DNA from: Candidatus Marinacidobacterales bacterium
GTDB taxonomy: Bacteria; Acidobacteriota; Vicinamibacteria; Marinacidobacterales; SMYC01
Direction: 5' to 3'
DNA length: 64,000 nt
NCBI GenBank assembly: GCA_965224085.1
Contig: CBDCYI010000009.1
Location: forward strand, 352,001 to 416,000
Numbering within the stretch: the stretch's first letter is position 1; each line of letters starts with the position of its first letter. This document shows positions 37,823 through 43,850 of this stretch, one piece after another. The notes below the pieces were generated by a model. The model had not been told where the DNA came from. It made no database searches and saw only the letters and a list, made by a program, of their open reading frames with translations. A program made the position numbers and the translations under genes.

Positions 37823-38083
37823 ATGAACCACACGATTTTTCAGATTTTGTTGAGTCTCAATGACGATCCGCGAGACGCCGACGGCGTCCTCGAGGCGATG
37901 CGCACGCTCGGCGGCAAGCAGGCTGTGCCCGCGCTCGCCTCTTTCTACCGGGGGCTCAAAAAGGCCTCGGATTCCGGTTTCATCCGCGTGCTCGACGCCA
38001 CCAAAGGCCGGCGTCGGGGCCGGCCGCGCCAGCGCTACCAGATGACCCGATCGGGACGCTACGCGCTGCGTACGGAAGCCCGG
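37823..38083 (+). pseudogene. PadR-like wHTH regulator truncated by IS5
   Basis: FQILLSL, SFYRGLK, R.RYQMTRSGR.AL..EA ends at the IS left repeat. Confidence 0.65.
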
Positions 38084-39169
38084 TGCCTTGGTGCACAACT
38101 CGCGATCTCGGTCCACAATTGTCCTGTACTCGCGGATACGAGGTTCCCCATGAGCATTTCAAACGCACTCAGCGGAAGTATGTGAAGAAGGCCTATCGCG
38201 TGAGGAATTGGCGTGAATATGAGGCGGGTCTACGCAACCGCGGGAGCCTGACCGTCTGGATCTCGCTCACCGCCGGCAAGCTTGTGAACTGGGACGCGCC
38301 CCGGCCAAGGAGGAGGAAACCGGGCCGTCAACGCAAGTACTCGAACCACGCCATCGAGACGGCTGTCACCCTGGGCATGGTGTTTCATCTGTCGTCTAGG
38401 CAGAGCGAGGGATTGCTGCGATCGTTGTTCGCTCTGATGAAGCTAGACAATGATGTGCCCGATCACACCACGATCTCGAGGCGCAAGGCGAAGCTGGGTA
38501 AGGTCCCCTTCTACCAAGACAAGCAGAAGACGCCGTTGCACATCTTGATCGACAGCAGCGGTCTCGCTGTCCACGCCGGCCAGCTGCGCAGAGCACCAAA
38601 TAGCAGGGACTATCGCAAGCTCCATCTGTGTGTCGACGAGCAGAGTGGCGAAGTCGTCGCCGGCGAGCTGACGAGCAAAAGAGCCCGCGATTCATCGCGG
38701 GTTGCATCGCTTGTCAGACAGAGCGACAGTCCCATCTCATCGGCCAGAGCTGACACCGCATACGACGCCAGCGGCGTCTATGAGGCAATCGAGAATCACA
38801 GCGCTCATCGCTCGCCGAGGGTGCTGATACCGCCGCGCAAGGGCGCCCTGCTCGCATCGGGGCCGGCGAGCAGCCGACAGCGCAATCGCAACATTGCAGC
38901 ACAAGCTCGGCTCGGCAAACGAAAGTGGCACACAGAATCGGGCTACAGCAAACGGAGCAAAGTCGAGACAACGTTCCATCGCTACAAGGCTATCGTGGGC
39001 TCAGCGATGCGAGCGAGAGGGTTGGCGGCACAGAGAGTCGAGGCAAGGATCGGGTGCAAGATTCTCCACACCATGACGGCGCTCGGGATGCCTGATAGCG
39101 AGATGATCGGATGATGGGAGTCGGGGCCAAGCGAGCTCTCGGCCTCTATCGGAGTTGTGCACCAAGGCA
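38084..39169 (+). mobile_element. IS5 family (IS903-like) insertion sequence
   Basis: Perfect 18-bp terminal inverted repeats TGCCTTGGTGCACAACTC (38084-38101 and 39152-39169); no target duplication. Confidence 0.9.
38182..39114 (+). CDS. IS5 family DDE transposase
   Basis: NWREYE.GL..RGSLT.W, PDHTTISRR, IDSSG, ADTAYD, GY..RS.VE; true start may be ATG 38150 with a 1-nt indel. Confidence 0.88.
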   Translation: MKKAYRVRNWREYEAGLRNRGSLTVWISLTAGKLVNWDAPRPRRRKPGRQRKYSNHAIETAVTLGMVFHLSSRQSEGLLRSLFALMKLDNDVPDHTTISRRKAKLGKVPFYQDKQKTPLHILIDSSGLAVHAGQLRRAPNSRDYRKLHLCVDEQSGEVVAGELTSKRARDSSRVASLVRQSDSPISSARADTAYDASGVYEAIENHSAHRSPRVLIPPRKGALLASGPASSRQRNRNIAAQARLGKRKWHTESGYSKRSKVETTFHRYKAIVGSAMRARGLAAQRVEARIGCKILHTMTALGMPDSEMIG

Positions 39170-39586
39170 GCGCGCAAGCGACTTCAGGCATTGGTGTCGT
39201 GGCTCGAGCGAAACGGCTACGACGAAGCTTCCGGAAGCCTTCGTGAAGGGATGGAAGAGACACTCACGGTCGTGAAGCTCGCGCTGCCCGCCTTACTTCG
39301 CCAGTCTCTTGCCACGACGAACGCCATTGAGAATCTCAACGGAACCATTCGCAGAGTATCGAGAAACGTCAAGCGTTGGAAGAGTCCTTCCATGGTTCGC
39401 CGATGGACCGCTCTTGGCGTCGTCACCGCGCAGAAAGAGTTCCGGCGTATCAAAGGCTATCGCCATATGGGCGCTCTCGTTCACGCGCTTAGAAGCAAAC
39501 AGAAATCTCTTGACAGCGATGAGTTTGCTGCCTAAGAGTATTCACAGGTGCCGCCGCTACCCGACCAAATTCAACAGCGGCCGGGA
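39170..39586 (+). mobile_element. IS256 family remnant (transposase C-terminus to 39535 plus right end; last 7 nt displaced to 43513-43519)
   Basis: SLREGMEETLTV, TTNAIENLN, RNVKRW, FRRIKGY; end TTCAACAGCGGCCGGGA + CATCCCC. Confidence 0.85.
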
Positions 39587-39982
39587 GTGCGCTGGGCTAA
39601 CTGAAAGGAGCCTATGGGTGGAAGTCCAATCCGACCAAAAGTCGTAGCGGACAGGTCGGGACCGAGTCTTGCGGGCGTCGTGGCAACGCGGGGTCCGAAG
39701 CGTAGACAGGGGTCGTGCAGGGTGTGTGAATGTAGCCTCGAAATGCTGAATATCGCGGAAGGCCGAGTTGATTCCCGTCAATGAAGGCAGCATGTGGGCC
39801 ATCGCTATCGCGAGATGGTTACGCTCCGCCGGGGTCGTGGACCACATCACGTACGAAGAGTTCCTTTCGGGACCCAGGAGGTCCGGCCGGGTCCATCGGA
39901 ATGGTCACCGATGGGGGCGTCGCGCAAGGGAAAACCGAAGCGCGGTGCTGAGCTGAGGCCGGAAGTCGGACCGATTCATAGT

Positions 39983-42015
39983 GTGTGCTGGGCAGCGTCC
40001 AGATCAGGAAGGTTGAAGTCCCTCTGGTGCTCGGATGAGGAGCGCCATATCCAAAAGCGGGGGTAACGCCTCGCTGGCCGGGGAACGCGGATAAGGAGAA
40101 CCCTAAACGGGCACGAAGTTGGAAACGATGGCTACTGCCAAGGGGATGTACCTAAGTTCGGGTTCTGTCCACTGGACAACTGGAGGACAGGGTGTCCACC
40201 GCGAGGTGGAATCTGAAGGGTATGCGGAGCAGTACCGGGCCGTAATCGAGGGGGCGACCCCGTTGATGAACCGGTCGGCCAAAGGTGGGGCAAGGTCGAG
40301 CCTGCACTATGGAGGCGAAGGCGTTCTCATTCACCCACCGAATCAAGGTGTTTGCGGACGGCACGGTACGGAAGATCTGGACGTGACCCCAGGAGGGCTC
40401 ATTGGGTTCCCGAGTGGCGTCGGGATAAGCGACCCTATAAGCGAGAGCGAAATGGGAAGTGAAGCCGGGTGAGTCGTCGGACAGCCCAATAGTACCTGAA
40501 GCGCGGTGAAAGTCGTGTGATCGAGAGATCGGCAGCCGAGTGGGCTGGGGAAGGGGGCTGGCAAAGGTGGTTGGTGACAACAAGGATGACAGACGAGTAA
40601 GGGCGATGACGCGGATAAGTTCCTTTAGTGAAAGACCCAGAAGTGATCGTCCGAGGAAACTGTCGGCCTGGTTGAACCCAACGGGTGAGAGGAAGGTCCA
40701 CTCTCTGGTGGACAAGATATACAAGCGGAAGAACTTGGAGCTGGCCTGGAACCGAGTGAAGCGGAACAAGGGTGCCGGTGGCATCGATGGACAAACTCTG
40801 GACGAGTTTGAGGAGCAGCTTGATGCGCACCTCAACCGACTCCATGAGGAGCTCAAGACCGATGCCTATCGTCCACTACCTGTTCGGCAGAAACTCATTC
40901 CCAAGGCTGGACAACCGGGAAAGTTCCGCCCGCTCGGCATTCCGGCCGTTTATGACCGCGTGTGTCAGCAGGCACTGCAGAACCGGTTGGAACCGATCTT
41001 CGAGCAGGTGTTCGATGCCGCCAGCTTCGGATATCGACGAGGAAGATCGACAAAGGATGCTTTACGCAAGATCTGGCAAGAGATCGAAGAGGGTTACGAG
41101 TGGATCGTGGATGCGGATCTTTCCAATTTCTTTGGGACTGTGGACCATGAGAAGCTCCTCGCTCTTGTTGCCAAGCGAGTGTCGGATGGTCGCGTCCTTC
41201 GTCTTATTCGCAGCATGCTCAAAGCAGGCTGCATGGCGGAGGGGAGACGGCTCCCGACCGAGCAAGGTGCACCGCAAGGCGGTGTGGTCTCACCGATCTT
41301 AAGTAACGTCCTTTTGACTCCGTTTGATCGGGAGATGCGCCATCGTGGCTATCGCCTGACGCGGTATGCCGACGACTGGGTCGTGACATGCTGCACCAAG
41401 GCAGAGGCCCAGAAGGTGCTGGCCGAAGCCCGGATGATCCTTACGACGTTGGGTGTAACCTTGAACGTGGAGAAGACTCGTATCGTTCACGTTGCACACG
41501 GCTTCGAGTTCTTGGGATACAAGATCAAGCGGGGTAGTCGCCCTTTGGCCCTACCCTCACACAAGATCCGTACGGGTGTCCGCAAGGGTGACCTGTACGC
41601 GTACCCTCGACAGAAGTCGCTCCAGCACTTCAAGGATCAGATTCGGCGACGGACCTGTCGCAAAGCTCCTGTGAGTACGCAGCAGCTAATCGACGAGATC
41701 AACCCGGTTATTCGCGGTTGGGGTCTTTACTATCATAAAGCTCACGTCCGCAAGCTCTTCGCGCGTCTCGATCGTTGGATCCTGCGACGTATCTGGTCGC
41801 ATCGGTTCAAACGCTGGCGCTGTCGGGGGTGGAAGCAGCTCCCGGAGCGTCAGCTCTACGATGAGATGGGCCTCGTACGCTTTGTCTTCCTGATTCCTTC
41901 CATCAAGCCGCGATGAATAATCCAACCTTTGTGAAAGCCGGATACGGGAAAACTGTATGTCCGGTTTGAGCGGCGGACGGGGGTCAGCGCTGCGGTGCGC
42001 CCCCTCCGACCCGAC
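39983..42015 (+). mobile_element. Group II intron B nested in the ribozyme of intron A
   Basis: 5' GTGTG; domain V AAGCCGGATACGGGAAAACTGTATGTCCGGTTT near 41935; 3' end CCCGAC; EBS1 ACTATG (40306-40311) complementary to CATAGT (39977-39982). Confidence 0.9.
40606..41916 (+). CDS. ltrA: Group II intron reverse transcriptase/maturase of intron B, no endonuclease domain
   Basis: KVHSLVDK, RPLGIP, PQGGVVSP, YADD, FLGY, INPVIRGW. Confidence 0.93.
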   Translation: MTRISSFSERPRSDRPRKLSAWLNPTGERKVHSLVDKIYKRKNLELAWNRVKRNKGAGGIDGQTLDEFEEQLDAHLNRLHEELKTDAYRPLPVRQKLIPKAGQPGKFRPLGIPAVYDRVCQQALQNRLEPIFEQVFDAASFGYRRGRSTKDALRKIWQEIEEGYEWIVDADLSNFFGTVDHEKLLALVAKRVSDGRVLRLIRSMLKAGCMAEGRRLPTEQGAPQGGVVSPILSNVLLTPFDREMRHRGYRLTRYADDWVVTCCTKAEAQKVLAEARMILTTLGVTLNVEKTRIVHVAHGFEFLGYKIKRGSRPLALPSHKIRTGVRKGDLYAYPRQKSLQHFKDQIRRRTCRKAPVSTQQLIDEINPVIRGWGLYYHKAHVRKLFARLDRWILRRIWSHRFKRWRCRGWKQLPERQLYDEMGLVRFVFLIPSIKPR

Positions 42016-42042
42016 ACTGAGGAAGCTATCGAAGGCAACGAG

Positions 42043-43422
42043 ATGGTGGAGGGAAGGGATCGGCCTGGAGGGAACCCACGGGAGAGGGCTAAGGTCCGGA
42101 CACAGCGCCGGGTCGCCTTACCGCCAAATCTCACGCGGGTGAACGAAGCAGCGAAGCGAGATAGAAAGGCTCGGTTCACTGCGTTGCTGCATCACGTGGA
42201 TCACGAAGCGCTCTATCGAGCGTTTCGTCGGTTGAAGCGCAGCGCAAGCGCTGGTGTCGACGGAGAGACTGTCGCCGATTACGAGAAGAACTTCGTGAGC
42301 AACATCAAGGATCTTTGCTCGCGGGTACACGCCGGTCGCTACCGACCACTACCGGTGCGGCGCGTGTACATTCCTAAGTCGGATGGCGGAAAGCGCCCTC
42401 TTGGCATCCCCGCACTGGAAGACAAGATTGTCCAAGGAGCGGTAGCCGAGGTTTTGAGCGCCGTCTACGAAGTCGATTTCATCGGGTTCTCGTACGGGTT
42501 TCGGCCCGGACGGAGCCCGCACCAAGCGTTGCACGCGCTCCACACCGCGCTCATGACGCAACGCGTGAACTGGGTTCTCGACGCGGACATCCGCAAGTTC
42601 TTCGACTCGGTGGACCACGAGTGGTTGATGCGGATGCTTTCGCACCGGGTCGCCGACAAACGCATCCTTCGACTCATCCGTCAGTGGTTGCGAGCCGGCG
42701 TACTGGAGAAAGGAGAGTGGAGCGAGACAACTGAAGGGACACCGCAAGGGGCAGGTGTGAGCCCGCTCTTGGCTAACGTCTTTCTGCACTACGTTCTAGA
42801 TCTGTGGGTTCATCGATGGCGCCGGCTCGAAGCACAAGGCCGTATTTCCATCGTGCGATACGCTGACGACTTCGTCATGGGCTTCCAGCATCGGACCGAT
42901 GCCAGCAGGATGATGAGAGCGCTCAAGGAGCGACTAGCCCGATTCGGGCTTGCGCTCCACGAGAACAAGACCCGTTTGCTCGAGTTCGGGAGATTACCTT
43001 CCTTGTCACGCGAGCAACGGGGCCTTCGGCGGTGTGCGACGTTCGCTTTCCTGGGTTTCACTCATTATTGTGGGAGAACCCGCGATGGCCGTTTCGTCGT
43101 GAAGCGCAAAACGCAGAGCCAGCGGCTACGAGCCAAACTCAAGTCGCTACGGCTTCGCGCGAAGCAACGTATGCATGCTCCAGTCGCCGTCCAGCATCGC
43201 TGGCTTTGCCAGGTGCTGCGCGGTCACTACGCGTACTACGGACTTCCCAGCAACATCCGCTCTCTCCAATCCTTTTCTGAGGAGGTGACACGGTTGTGGT
43301 TTCGAAGCCTTCGTCGGCGGAGTCAGCGCCGAATGACCTGGCCTCGTTTTCACTTGTTGTTGGAGCGCTTTCCCCTACCAGTCCCTCACCTCACTCCGTC
43401 CCGACTACCTTGCCTTGTCTGA
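42043..43422 (+). CDS. ltrA: Group II intron reverse transcriptase/maturase of intron A, no endonuclease domain
   Basis: RFTALLHH, RPLGIPALEDK, GTPQG, YADD, FLGFTH, LRGHYAYY; start must be 3' of 42015 and is uncertain. Confidence 0.92.
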   Translation: MVEGRDRPGGNPRERAKVRTQRRVALPPNLTRVNEAAKRDRKARFTALLHHVDHEALYRAFRRLKRSASAGVDGETVADYEKNFVSNIKDLCSRVHAGRYRPLPVRRVYIPKSDGGKRPLGIPALEDKIVQGAVAEVLSAVYEVDFIGFSYGFRPGRSPHQALHALHTALMTQRVNWVLDADIRKFFDSVDHEWLMRMLSHRVADKRILRLIRQWLRAGVLEKGEWSETTEGTPQGAGVSPLLANVFLHYVLDLWVHRWRRLEAQGRISIVRYADDFVMGFQHRTDASRMMRALKERLARFGLALHENKTRLLEFGRLPSLSREQRGLRRCATFAFLGFTHYCGRTRDGRFVVKRKTQSQRLRAKLKSLRLRAKQRMHAPVAVQHRWLCQVLRGHYAYYGLPSNIRSLQSFSEEVTRLWFRSLRRRSQRRMTWPRFHLLLERFPLPVPHLTPSRLPCLV

Positions 43423-43532
43423 TTTCGGGTATACCTTCAGGAGGAGCCGAGTGCGGGAAAGCCGCACGCTCGGATCTGTGAGGGCGAAAGCCGAATGGCT
43501 GAGCTACTCGACCATCCCCGGTTCGACCCAAA

Positions 43533-43649
43533 TCACGGTATTTCATATTTCACCTGCTTGGCTGTAAAGCCGGCATCCACGGTCACCAGTGTGCCGGTCA
43601 TATAGCTGGCATCAGCTGAAGCCAAAAATACAACAACACGAGCAATTTC
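43533..43649 (-). pseudogene. SDR oxidoreductase C-terminal fragment
   Basis: Manual translation EIARVVVFLASADASYMTGTLVTVDAGFTA, cut at an IS end. Confidence 0.75.
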
Positions 43650-43850
43650 GGGGATATCCTGAATCTAGTTGAAATCGGTGAGTGACTCCGTTCAGATCGT
43701 CGGTCAAAGCTGGCGATCAAAAAGAAAGGAGCCACCCGGTGAGAGCAGATACGAAGAAGAGAAAGAATGCAACACAGATGCTGAGGGCGACGCAGGAGCA
43801 AGAGTGGTGGGCGGATCAAGTTGTGCATGTTTACCTCTTCTTTCACTTGA
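43650..43850 (+). mobile_element. Left-end remnant of a second IS256-like element
   Basis: GGGGATATCCTGAATCTAGTTGAA matches, as an inverted repeat, the rebuilt right end in spacing and conserved positions; followed by an AAGGAG RBS; right boundary approximate. Confidence 0.55.

Follow-up and report, generated by a model that had tools for sequence, protein, structure and literature searches.

A complete group II intron nested within another group II intron at an insertion sequence end, and a lineage of related introns that inserts mainly into intron sequence

How does one group II intron come to lie within the ribozyme of another, and what kind of intron does this? The question is raised by a 64,000-nucleotide (nt) stretch of Candidatus Marinacidobacterales bacterium (GenBank assembly GCA_965224085.1, contig CBDCYI010000009.1, positions 352,001 to 416,000), here called the window. 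Reading its sequence, we found an outer intron, intron A, from 39587 (GTGCG) to 43512 (...CTCGAC), at the end of an insertion sequence (IS), and an inner intron, intron B, from 39983 (GTGTG) to 42015 (...CCCGAC), 2033 nt long, which interrupts it. The nesting is genuine and has clean boundaries: a bacterial twintron at the end of an IS, which as an arrangement is of a known kind. What stands out is the lineage of the inner intron. It is autonomous and abundant, occurs in several phyla, and targets a conserved ribozyme motif of other introns. We consider it very likely that autonomous intron B retrohomed into DNA copies of intron A at this motif and that its lineage parasitizes other introns. 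The parts of the nested element are as follows, in window positions.

39587..39982 (+), 5' segment of intron A with the GTGCG end, domain I, a Y-shaped domain II, and the 5' strand of predicted domain III (D3); RF02005 match at 39621-39844, 140.9 bits; 11 identical genome copies; constrained fold
39971..39977 (+), CCGATTC, 5' strand of the predicted D3 basal helix of A, partner 42057-42063; minimum free energy (MFE) fold with the open reading frame (ORF) masked, RF01998 stem, and covariation
39977..39982 (+), CATAGT, intron-binding site 1 (IBS1) of intron B, within the conserved D3 internal-loop motif; pairs with exon-binding site 1 (EBS1) at 40306-40311; RF01998 consensus
39983..42015 (+), complete intron B, 2033 nt; 7 identical copies; RF00029, 41.3 bits
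40304..40312 (+), EBS1 loop of B, GCACTATGG; closed by GCCT 40300-40303 and AGGC 40313-40316
40488..40493 (+), AATAGT, B's own D3 motif; one mismatch to its own EBS1
40609..41916 (+), B intron-encoded protein, 435 amino acids (aa), reverse transcriptase (RT) and maturase (X); Pfam RVT_1 1e-42, GIIM 1.4e-15
41933..42015 (+), domains V-VI of B; RF00029, 41.3 bits, just above the cut-off of 40
42016..43512 (+), 3' segment of intron A with the D3 remainder to 42063, domain IV with the ORF, and domains V-VI; identical genome copies; fold
42043..43422 (+), A intron-encoded protein; Pfam RVT_1 4.6e-39
42057..42063 (+), GGATCGG, 3' strand of the predicted D3 basal helix of A; fold and covariation
43442..43512 (+), domains V-VI of A; RF00029, 53.2 bits

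Intron B follows the group II end rule (5' GUGYG, 3' AY, repeatable boundaries) and occurs seven times in its own genome, each copy 100% identical over exactly positions 1-2033. Taking it out joins ...GGACCGATTCATAGT|ACTGAGGAAG. We searched that genome separately with the two A segments flanking B and then mapped A with a natural copy. The uninterrupted copy at C11:484183-486075 is identical, base by base, to the two window pieces put together and has the junction ...CGATTCATAGT|ACTGAGGAAG. Among the 11 A copies that hold the site, B occupies 6 (4 full and 2 3'-truncated), and the other 5 are empty, all with the predicted junction. Four of the empty copies are full, at 1893 nt each (C11:193429-195320, C11:484183-486075, C4:257881-259772, and C5:2148291-2150182), and one is 3'-truncated (C5:683803-684454); four further copies are 5'-truncated and lack the insertion site. 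A complete intron lies within an intron, and its removal restores an outer intron that exists naturally. Multiple identical copies together with filled and empty sites point, indirectly, to mobility of B.

The nesting is also present outside the assembly. Public runs of four studies contain 83-93% of the stretch's sampled words, and the best-holding run may be the source sample. Contigs of X1 span the 5' B junction (39400-40273) and the 3' B junction (40294-43519), and contigs of X3 and X5 hold both filled junctions plus the joint 39982>42016, the empty form. The same layout, with an RF02005 match, B-type domains V-VI (D5-D6), and a second D5-D6, occurs at two loci (L020 and L022) of the complete Singulisphaera sp. 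Ch08 chromosome. As a separate observation, contigs from the metatranscriptome of a sponge (run X11) align to parts of both intron ORFs (window 39400-43700) and differ from them at 0-1 positions, which indicates the same or a very close strain in that sponge sample.

Both introns encode proteins. The open frame of B (40540-41916) carries RVT_1 and the group II maturase domain GIIM by Pfam; its ATG start was chosen from the frame reading and an alignment of homologues. The closest solved relatives of its product are the GsI-IIC RT (1.3e-68) and other group II RTs. The open frame of A (41995-43422) carries RVT_1 and gives 459 aa from ATG 42043 or 428 aa from GTG 42136. The GTG, yielding MNEAAKRDRKARFTALLHHV..., may be the true start, as the ATG falls inside the D3 element. 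No endonuclease (HNH) family was among the Pfam matches of B's protein or of A's, and Pfam did not recognize an X domain in A's. On the + strand of the window, Rfam recovers three group II intron pieces, two of intron A and one of intron B. Rfam and Pfam together find a domain I, domains V-VI, and an RT ORF in intron A, and the RF02001 match of intron B is weak (27.9 bits, below the cut-off of 32).

A first-pass annotation, made from the window alone, had described exact nested ends, an A junction that excision of B would restore, two intact RT ORFs of different lineages, and a three-level stack of IS, intron A, and intron B. The five empty copies, one of them identical to the window pieces, bear out the ends and the junction, and the contigs of X1, X3, and X5 bridge both B junctions. 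Both ORFs are open, with Pfam matches, and their RTs, at 34% mutual identity, are of different lineages. The stack is real as well, as mapping of the IS ends in the genome showed (see below).

What does intron B insert into elsewhere? In its own genome, all seven copies lie inside group II introns, six in A and one (C9:853583-855615) in an ORF-less intron, intron C, which gives an RF02003 match of 120 bits upstream of B and a weak D5-D6 (29 bits) downstream. A near-identical empty copy of intron C is present at C4:1590845-1591737. Intron C itself is ~890 nt without B (L008:4168-7084 corresponds to C9 ~853167-856083), shows no visible GUGYG 5' end, and keeps of its ORF just the N- and C-terminal remnants, now fused. 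C5:970707-971463 and C11:1238946-1239513 hold relatives that are more diverged.

We found no match to the 5' 638 nt of B among 40 related genomes at E <= 1e-10, and relatives came only via the protein. Contigs of one genome per species gave 10 loci. Eight of these are at 71-80% aa identity to B's protein, and the two distant ones (41-44% aa identity) stayed outside the locus analysis. The eight belong to a Planctomycetota metagenome-assembled genome (MAG), an Ectothiorhodospiraceae MAG, Singulisphaera sp. Ch08 (three loci), Singulisphaera sp. PoT, Caballeronia udeis, and a Paraburkholderia, and six are full length, at ~74-77% DNA identity. In all six full-length loci the 5' flank ends in C(A/G)TAGT, after AGTC(A/G)G (GACGG in L024). 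A host D5-D6 lies downstream in 6/8 loci, and RF02005 matches upstream in two (L020 and L022); L018 and L024 have host intron remnants only and adjoin ordinary genes. A blastn search with A against the eight loci gave nothing; the A-type hosts at L020 and L022, recognized through RF02005, escape it because they are too diverged.

Metagenomes gave at least 580 relatives of B's protein, of which we read the best 80 (66-82% identity); the domain V-VI region of B is kept in 78 of these by blastn of its 3' end. The 5' junction was readable in 63 of the 80 loci, and at 50 of them it ends in TAGT within a D3 context (32 CATAGT, 15 CGTAGT, and 3 other). The remaining 13 comprise six one-letter variants, two B-B tandems, two other sites (L081 and L103), and three non-intron sites (GCGAAUA|). 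The automated count had been 46 TAGT among 65 "observable" junctions; L048, L049, L054, and L097 were added after their boundaries were corrected by eye, and the boundaries of L041, L065, and L069, also mis-set automatically, were corrected or the loci dropped. A regular expression for the 3' half of D3 was too permissive as evidence, and we used the first base, a helix test, and the downstream RT instead. A second RT lies downstream on the same strand in 27 of the 36 metagenome loci with >=500 nt downstream, starting 30-813 nt past B. The best match of these RTs is A's protein, one of two other host proteins, or B's protein only distantly. Six of the nine loci without a second RT have D3-like flanks and may be in ORF-less hosts; the other three form the non-intron subgroup. 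Host ribozymes match three Rfam D1-D4 families, RF02005, RF02003, and RF01998.

Intron sites are thus strongly preferred by the homologues of B (6/6 genome and 50/63 metagenome loci). The first-pass annotation had spoken of a preference for intron RNA. The preference is there, and it is better put as one for intron sequence, because retrohoming targets DNA copies of introns.

Two kinds of junction deserve mention in their own right. Head-to-tail B-type introns occur at L035 (~294/295) and L096 (~3399/3400), reading ...CCGACCCGAC and then GTGTG/GCGTG; these could be tandem insertions, circle junctions, or an assembly effect. At L097:1505-1530, a 13-nt B-type 5' fragment, GTGTGCTGAGCGT, comes after the D3 motif ...GAAGTCGGACTCGCTGATAGT and precedes a full B-type intron. 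The fragment may be the scar of an earlier insertion.

The likely basis of this preference is the EBS1 loop. The EBS1 hexamer ACUAUG (40306-40311) lies in the loop GCACUAUGG on a GCCU/AGGC stem, the hairpin of the RF02001 consensus, and forms six Watson-Crick pairs with CAUAGU (39977-39982), or eight with extension. The loop is found in 55/77 readable lineage members and is kept in six full-length copies from four organisms (one letter short in L024), and its stem covaries. When the target differs, EBS1 differs with it: UAUUCG faces CGAAUA in L084, L100, and L106, AGUACG faces CGUACU in L085, ACUACG faces CGUAGU in L036, ACUAUU faces GAUAGU in L049, AUUCCUU faces AAGGAGU in L103, and ACUUCU faces GGAAGU in L102. 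EBS1 changes track target changes, and EBS1 and IBS1 covary across the lineage. The 3' exon begins with A in 8/8 genome loci and in 59/65 readable metagenome loci. For EBS2/IBS2, the window offers AAUCG/CGAUU as a candidate pair and L018 offers GUCGAU/AUCGAC, and the two occupy homologous positions of the intron. The L084, L100, and L106 subgroup has the 3' end GACCCGAG, the EBS1 loop GUUAUUCGG, and the site ...GCGAAUA|, with neither an intron-like flank nor a downstream RT; by its sequence it looks like a target switch through EBS1 retuning.

Intron B carries an equivalent site of its own, at 40488-40493, which reads AATAGT. This hexamer is present in 48/82 readable lineage members, and C at position -6 is found in 11/82 own sites of B-type introns vs. 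47/50 host sites. The G·A mismatch of AAUAGU to EBS1 probably lowers self-invasion, as suggested by this correlation among relatives. The full pairing of the EBS1 loop with CATAGT and the mismatch at the own site had both been read in the first-pass annotation, and both held up.

Where in intron A does this site lie? In the ORF-masked MFE fold of the natural empty A copy, domain I closes at ~291 and a Y-shaped element occupies 292-384. After it, CCGAUUC (39971-39977) pairs with GGAUCGG (42057-42063), and the next helix in the MFE fold joins CCUGGAGG (42064-42071) with CCUUCAGG (43434-43441), just before domain V. From the domain order, we infer that these elements are domain II, D3, and the base of domain IV (D4). 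B is inserted five bases past the 5' strand of the predicted D3 basal helix, in the loop ...C-AUAGU|A.... The unconstrained and ORF-masked MFE folds disagreed on A's D4 stem. One candidate D4 base, CUGAGG/CUUCAG, with which B would sit at the D3/D4 junction, was dropped for CCUGGAGG/CCUUCAGG because the D3 helix (39971-39977/42057-42063) gained covariation support.

That support came from the flanks of B-type introns. Their common pattern is A-NNN-GAAR, a hairpin, YGGAG-N-RAAG, and then the 3' strand, and the partner strand mostly follows RAAG directly. For 49 distinct flank pairs, we compared the 7 nt before the AUAGU pentamer with a 7-mer of the locus's own 3' flank; loci lacking either flank, the two tandems, and L084, L100, L103, and L106 were set aside. 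The mean number of paired positions, out of 7, was 6.02 for matched flanks and 5.47 for shuffled partners (maximum, 5.69), and the matched flanks came out ahead in 200/200 shuffles. Consistently with this, the RF01998 consensus (AGAAgUCAGCAGAgGcCAUAGU, 26 nt, and then GgC) has a GcC/GgC stem that encloses AUAGU on its 5' side, and it includes CAUAGU. The first-pass annotation had named a conserved domain II/III region as the target. The conserved ribozyme motif stands, as it is part of the RF01998 consensus; the location now shifts to what is most probably the internal loop of domain III.

All of these data suggest a pathway. Intron B, with its own RT/maturase and no endonuclease domain detected, would retrohome into DNA copies of intron A. 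The target would encode the J2/3 linker and the 5' side of domain III (...AGUCGG...CAUAGU|A) and would be recognized chiefly via pairing of the EBS1 loop ACUAUG with CAUAGU. Since several group II intron families share this conserved motif, the lineage of B would make its living by parasitizing other introns. Within the transcript, B would separate the 5' strand of A's D3 basal helix from the rest of domain III, so that B most likely must splice first, restoring A's ribozyme; A would then splice out of the IS256-like terminal repeat. A's ORF, which lies wholly downstream of B, would be translatable without B splicing. As a broader picture, we lean toward the view that B-type introns are a widespread, autonomous, "hyperparasitic" lineage. 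Its ancestral, near-obligate homing site would be in D3 and shared by intron families, its hosts would be of different classes in Planctomycetota and Gamma- and Betaproteobacteria, and it would avoid itself by a one-base change and occasionally escape to non-intron targets via EBS1 retuning.

Several observations weigh against this account. In intron C the target reads GGTAGT, which makes only 5/6 pairs with EBS1, and 13/63 metagenome junctions are noncanonical. The loci are related and were picked as the best 80, so the counts describe the lineage and not independent events. The other four homologues gave no consistent EBS2/IBS2 match. The domain III label is a prediction, built from the order of the domains, a single Rfam consensus, an MFE fold, and covariation. 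All A copies are nearly identical, as are all B copies, and separate B insertions are therefore indistinguishable from spread of the composite. The RNA-library run X11 holds pieces of both ORFs at a depth of 2-5 with no joint in its contigs and may be DNA; for lack of joints it is uninformative on transcription or splicing.

The near identity of the copies leads to the first of three other explanations, that the twintron moves as a unit, with A's machinery mobilizing B-containing RNA and so producing six A+B copies. All six do share the same structure and sequence, and composite mobility is named as a possibility for the twintrons of Thermosynechococcus elongatus in the available text of Mohr et al. 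2010 (PMC2882425). We nevertheless think this unlikely. An A ribozyme that still carries B, with domain III split, would be a poor candidate for reverse splicing, and occupancy is mosaic: the IS pairs on C4 and C5 have one flanking A filled and the other empty. B is also found in the unrelated intron C, and the same B lineage is found in several host families across other genomes.

A second possibility is that B reverse-spliced into the RNA of A, either the excised intron or a precursor, and that the composite complementary DNA then recombined into the genome. The motif would be exposed in RNA, and sequence alone does not separate an RNA from a DNA target. Retrohoming of bacterial group II introns proceeds by reverse splicing into DNA, however, and with a DNA target, precise insertion at six loci needs no recombination step; we regard the RNA route as very improbable. 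The third possibility, that the nesting is an assembly artifact of collapsed multicopy repeats, is excluded for practical purposes: both introns are multicopy at 100% identity and hard to assemble, but the runs of four studies and the bridging contigs described above, together with the same architecture at the two loci of the complete Singulisphaera chromosome and on dozens of metagenome contigs, speak against it.

Retrohoming of B into DNA copies of A remains the preferred explanation. The lowest level of the stack is a 1460-bp IS256-like element, in both terminal repeats of which intron A is inserted 7 nt from the edge and faces outward; its 5' exon reads ...GGCGGGA and its 3' exon CATCCCC. 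In the window, the IS is represented by the following features.

38083..39114 (+), IS4/IS5-type DDE transposase ORF beside the truncated IS256-like fragment (context); Pfam DDE_Tnp_1_5 3.1e-25, DDE_Tnp_1 5.1e-15
39170..39586 (no strand assigned), IS256-like IS fragment, ~417 nt of 1460 bp; 95.5% match to IS query positions 1-418
39155-39535 (ORF of the IS fragment), C-terminal piece of a Mutator-family transposase; Pfam Transposase_mut, profile positions 288-365 of 379
43513..43519 (+), CATCCCC, the last 7 nt of the IS256-like terminal repeat and 3' exon of A; present after every A 3' end

The IS query stretch had the first base of intron A (window 39587) as its first letter, and the IS fragment terminates in A's 5' exon, ...GGCCGGGA. 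In the whole genome, 10/12 IS ends carry A, and the two empty ends read GGGGATG|TCCCG. Three IS copies bear A at both ends. In two of them, 8-bp target duplications (CCCGGCAG and CTCACGGA) lie outside the composite, and in the third, one flanking A is 3'-truncated.

We made three further observations on the sites of intron A. About 10 nt of IS sequence upstream of A (window 39575-39586) vary among IS ends that are 98-99% identical, the variants being ATCCGGCGGGA, AGCGGCCGGGA, AGCCGGCGGGA, AGCCGCCGGGA, and ATCCGACGGGA. The last five bases, CGGGA, are constant and would pair with UCCCG in A's loop at 39772-39777; the variability could reflect IBS2 drift, repair scars, or target escape. The four 5'-truncated A copies (C11:486544-487611, C4:1823517-1824760, C5:1938342-1939455, and C5:2297164-2298277) begin at A positions 648-825, run into CATCCCC and a stretch rich in C, and lack IS sequence on their upstream side; the flanks of two of the four are identical. 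They look like incomplete reverse transcription products or copies in a duplicated segment. One full, empty A (C11:193429-195320) lies outside any recognizable IS; what it shares with the IS ends is limited to an 18-nt stretch before it (TTCAACATCCGGCGGGAG, in which the last G already belongs to A as its first base) and the CATCCCC after it. It either roughly delimits the minimal homing site of A or marks a solo terminal repeat.

How does this twintron compare with known ones? Dai and Zimmerly are said to have described, in 2003, Methanosarcina acetivorans introns homing into the ORFs of related introns, with nesting up to five levels. The available part of Zimmerly & Semper 2015 (PMC4424553) mentions several bacterial twintrons and the repeated homing of M. 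acetivorans introns into other introns, and that of Pfreundt & Hess 2015 (PMC4649490) calls bacterial twintrons rare. Intron B resembles the M. acetivorans nested introns, as they appear in the former source, in its repeated site-specific homing into introns, which gives a perpetual homing site. It differs in its target, a ribozyme motif that precedes the ORF, and in that we saw a single intron-in-intron level.

In T. elongatus, as far as the accessible text of PMC2882425 goes, ORF-less TeI3 (F3) introns lie in domain IV of TeI4 (F1) introns, between the first two ATGs, and the inner intron is a derivative of the same family that depends on the host intron's protein. There too the outer ORF is still translatable, and some T. 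elongatus introns also target an IS. Intron B, in contrast, has its own RT in an intact 435-aa ORF, 34% identical to that of its host, lies at a putative domain III site upstream of a covarying helix that closes before domain IV, and has relatives with hosts of multiple families in several phyla. A further parallel is T.e.I7/T.e.I8 of Trichodesmium erythraeum, in which distantly related ORF-containing introns are nested, the inner one lies in a host ribozyme domain, and sequential splicing was shown in vivo (Pfreundt & Hess 2015, PMC4649490, in the part available). There, one locus within a protein-coding gene is involved, the inner intron occupies domain I, and the same text reports no lineage-wide target preference. 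The present one has many copies, a predicted domain III site, and exons in an IS terminal repeat, and its splicing order is deduced from sequence.

We found no description of a D3-targeting intron lineage in the searchable literature, which did not extend to supplements; older papers may describe D3-located twintrons. The parts available of two published pipelines indicate that nested introns are excluded at the ORF step in one (PMC4028801) and that outer introns are missed in the other (PMC8919778). Because such pipelines drop nested introns, the B lineage is probably undercounted.

The known intron-targeting cases are from one organism each, and their targets are the host intron's ORF or domain IV. 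A conserved piece of ribozyme used as an address would give the B lineage an inexhaustible and horizontally mobile supply of targets, and its hosts would be subject to a splicing hierarchy. The lineage is a natural setting in which to study tolerance of domain III interruption, avoidance of self-invasion, and entry into new niches through EBS1 retuning.

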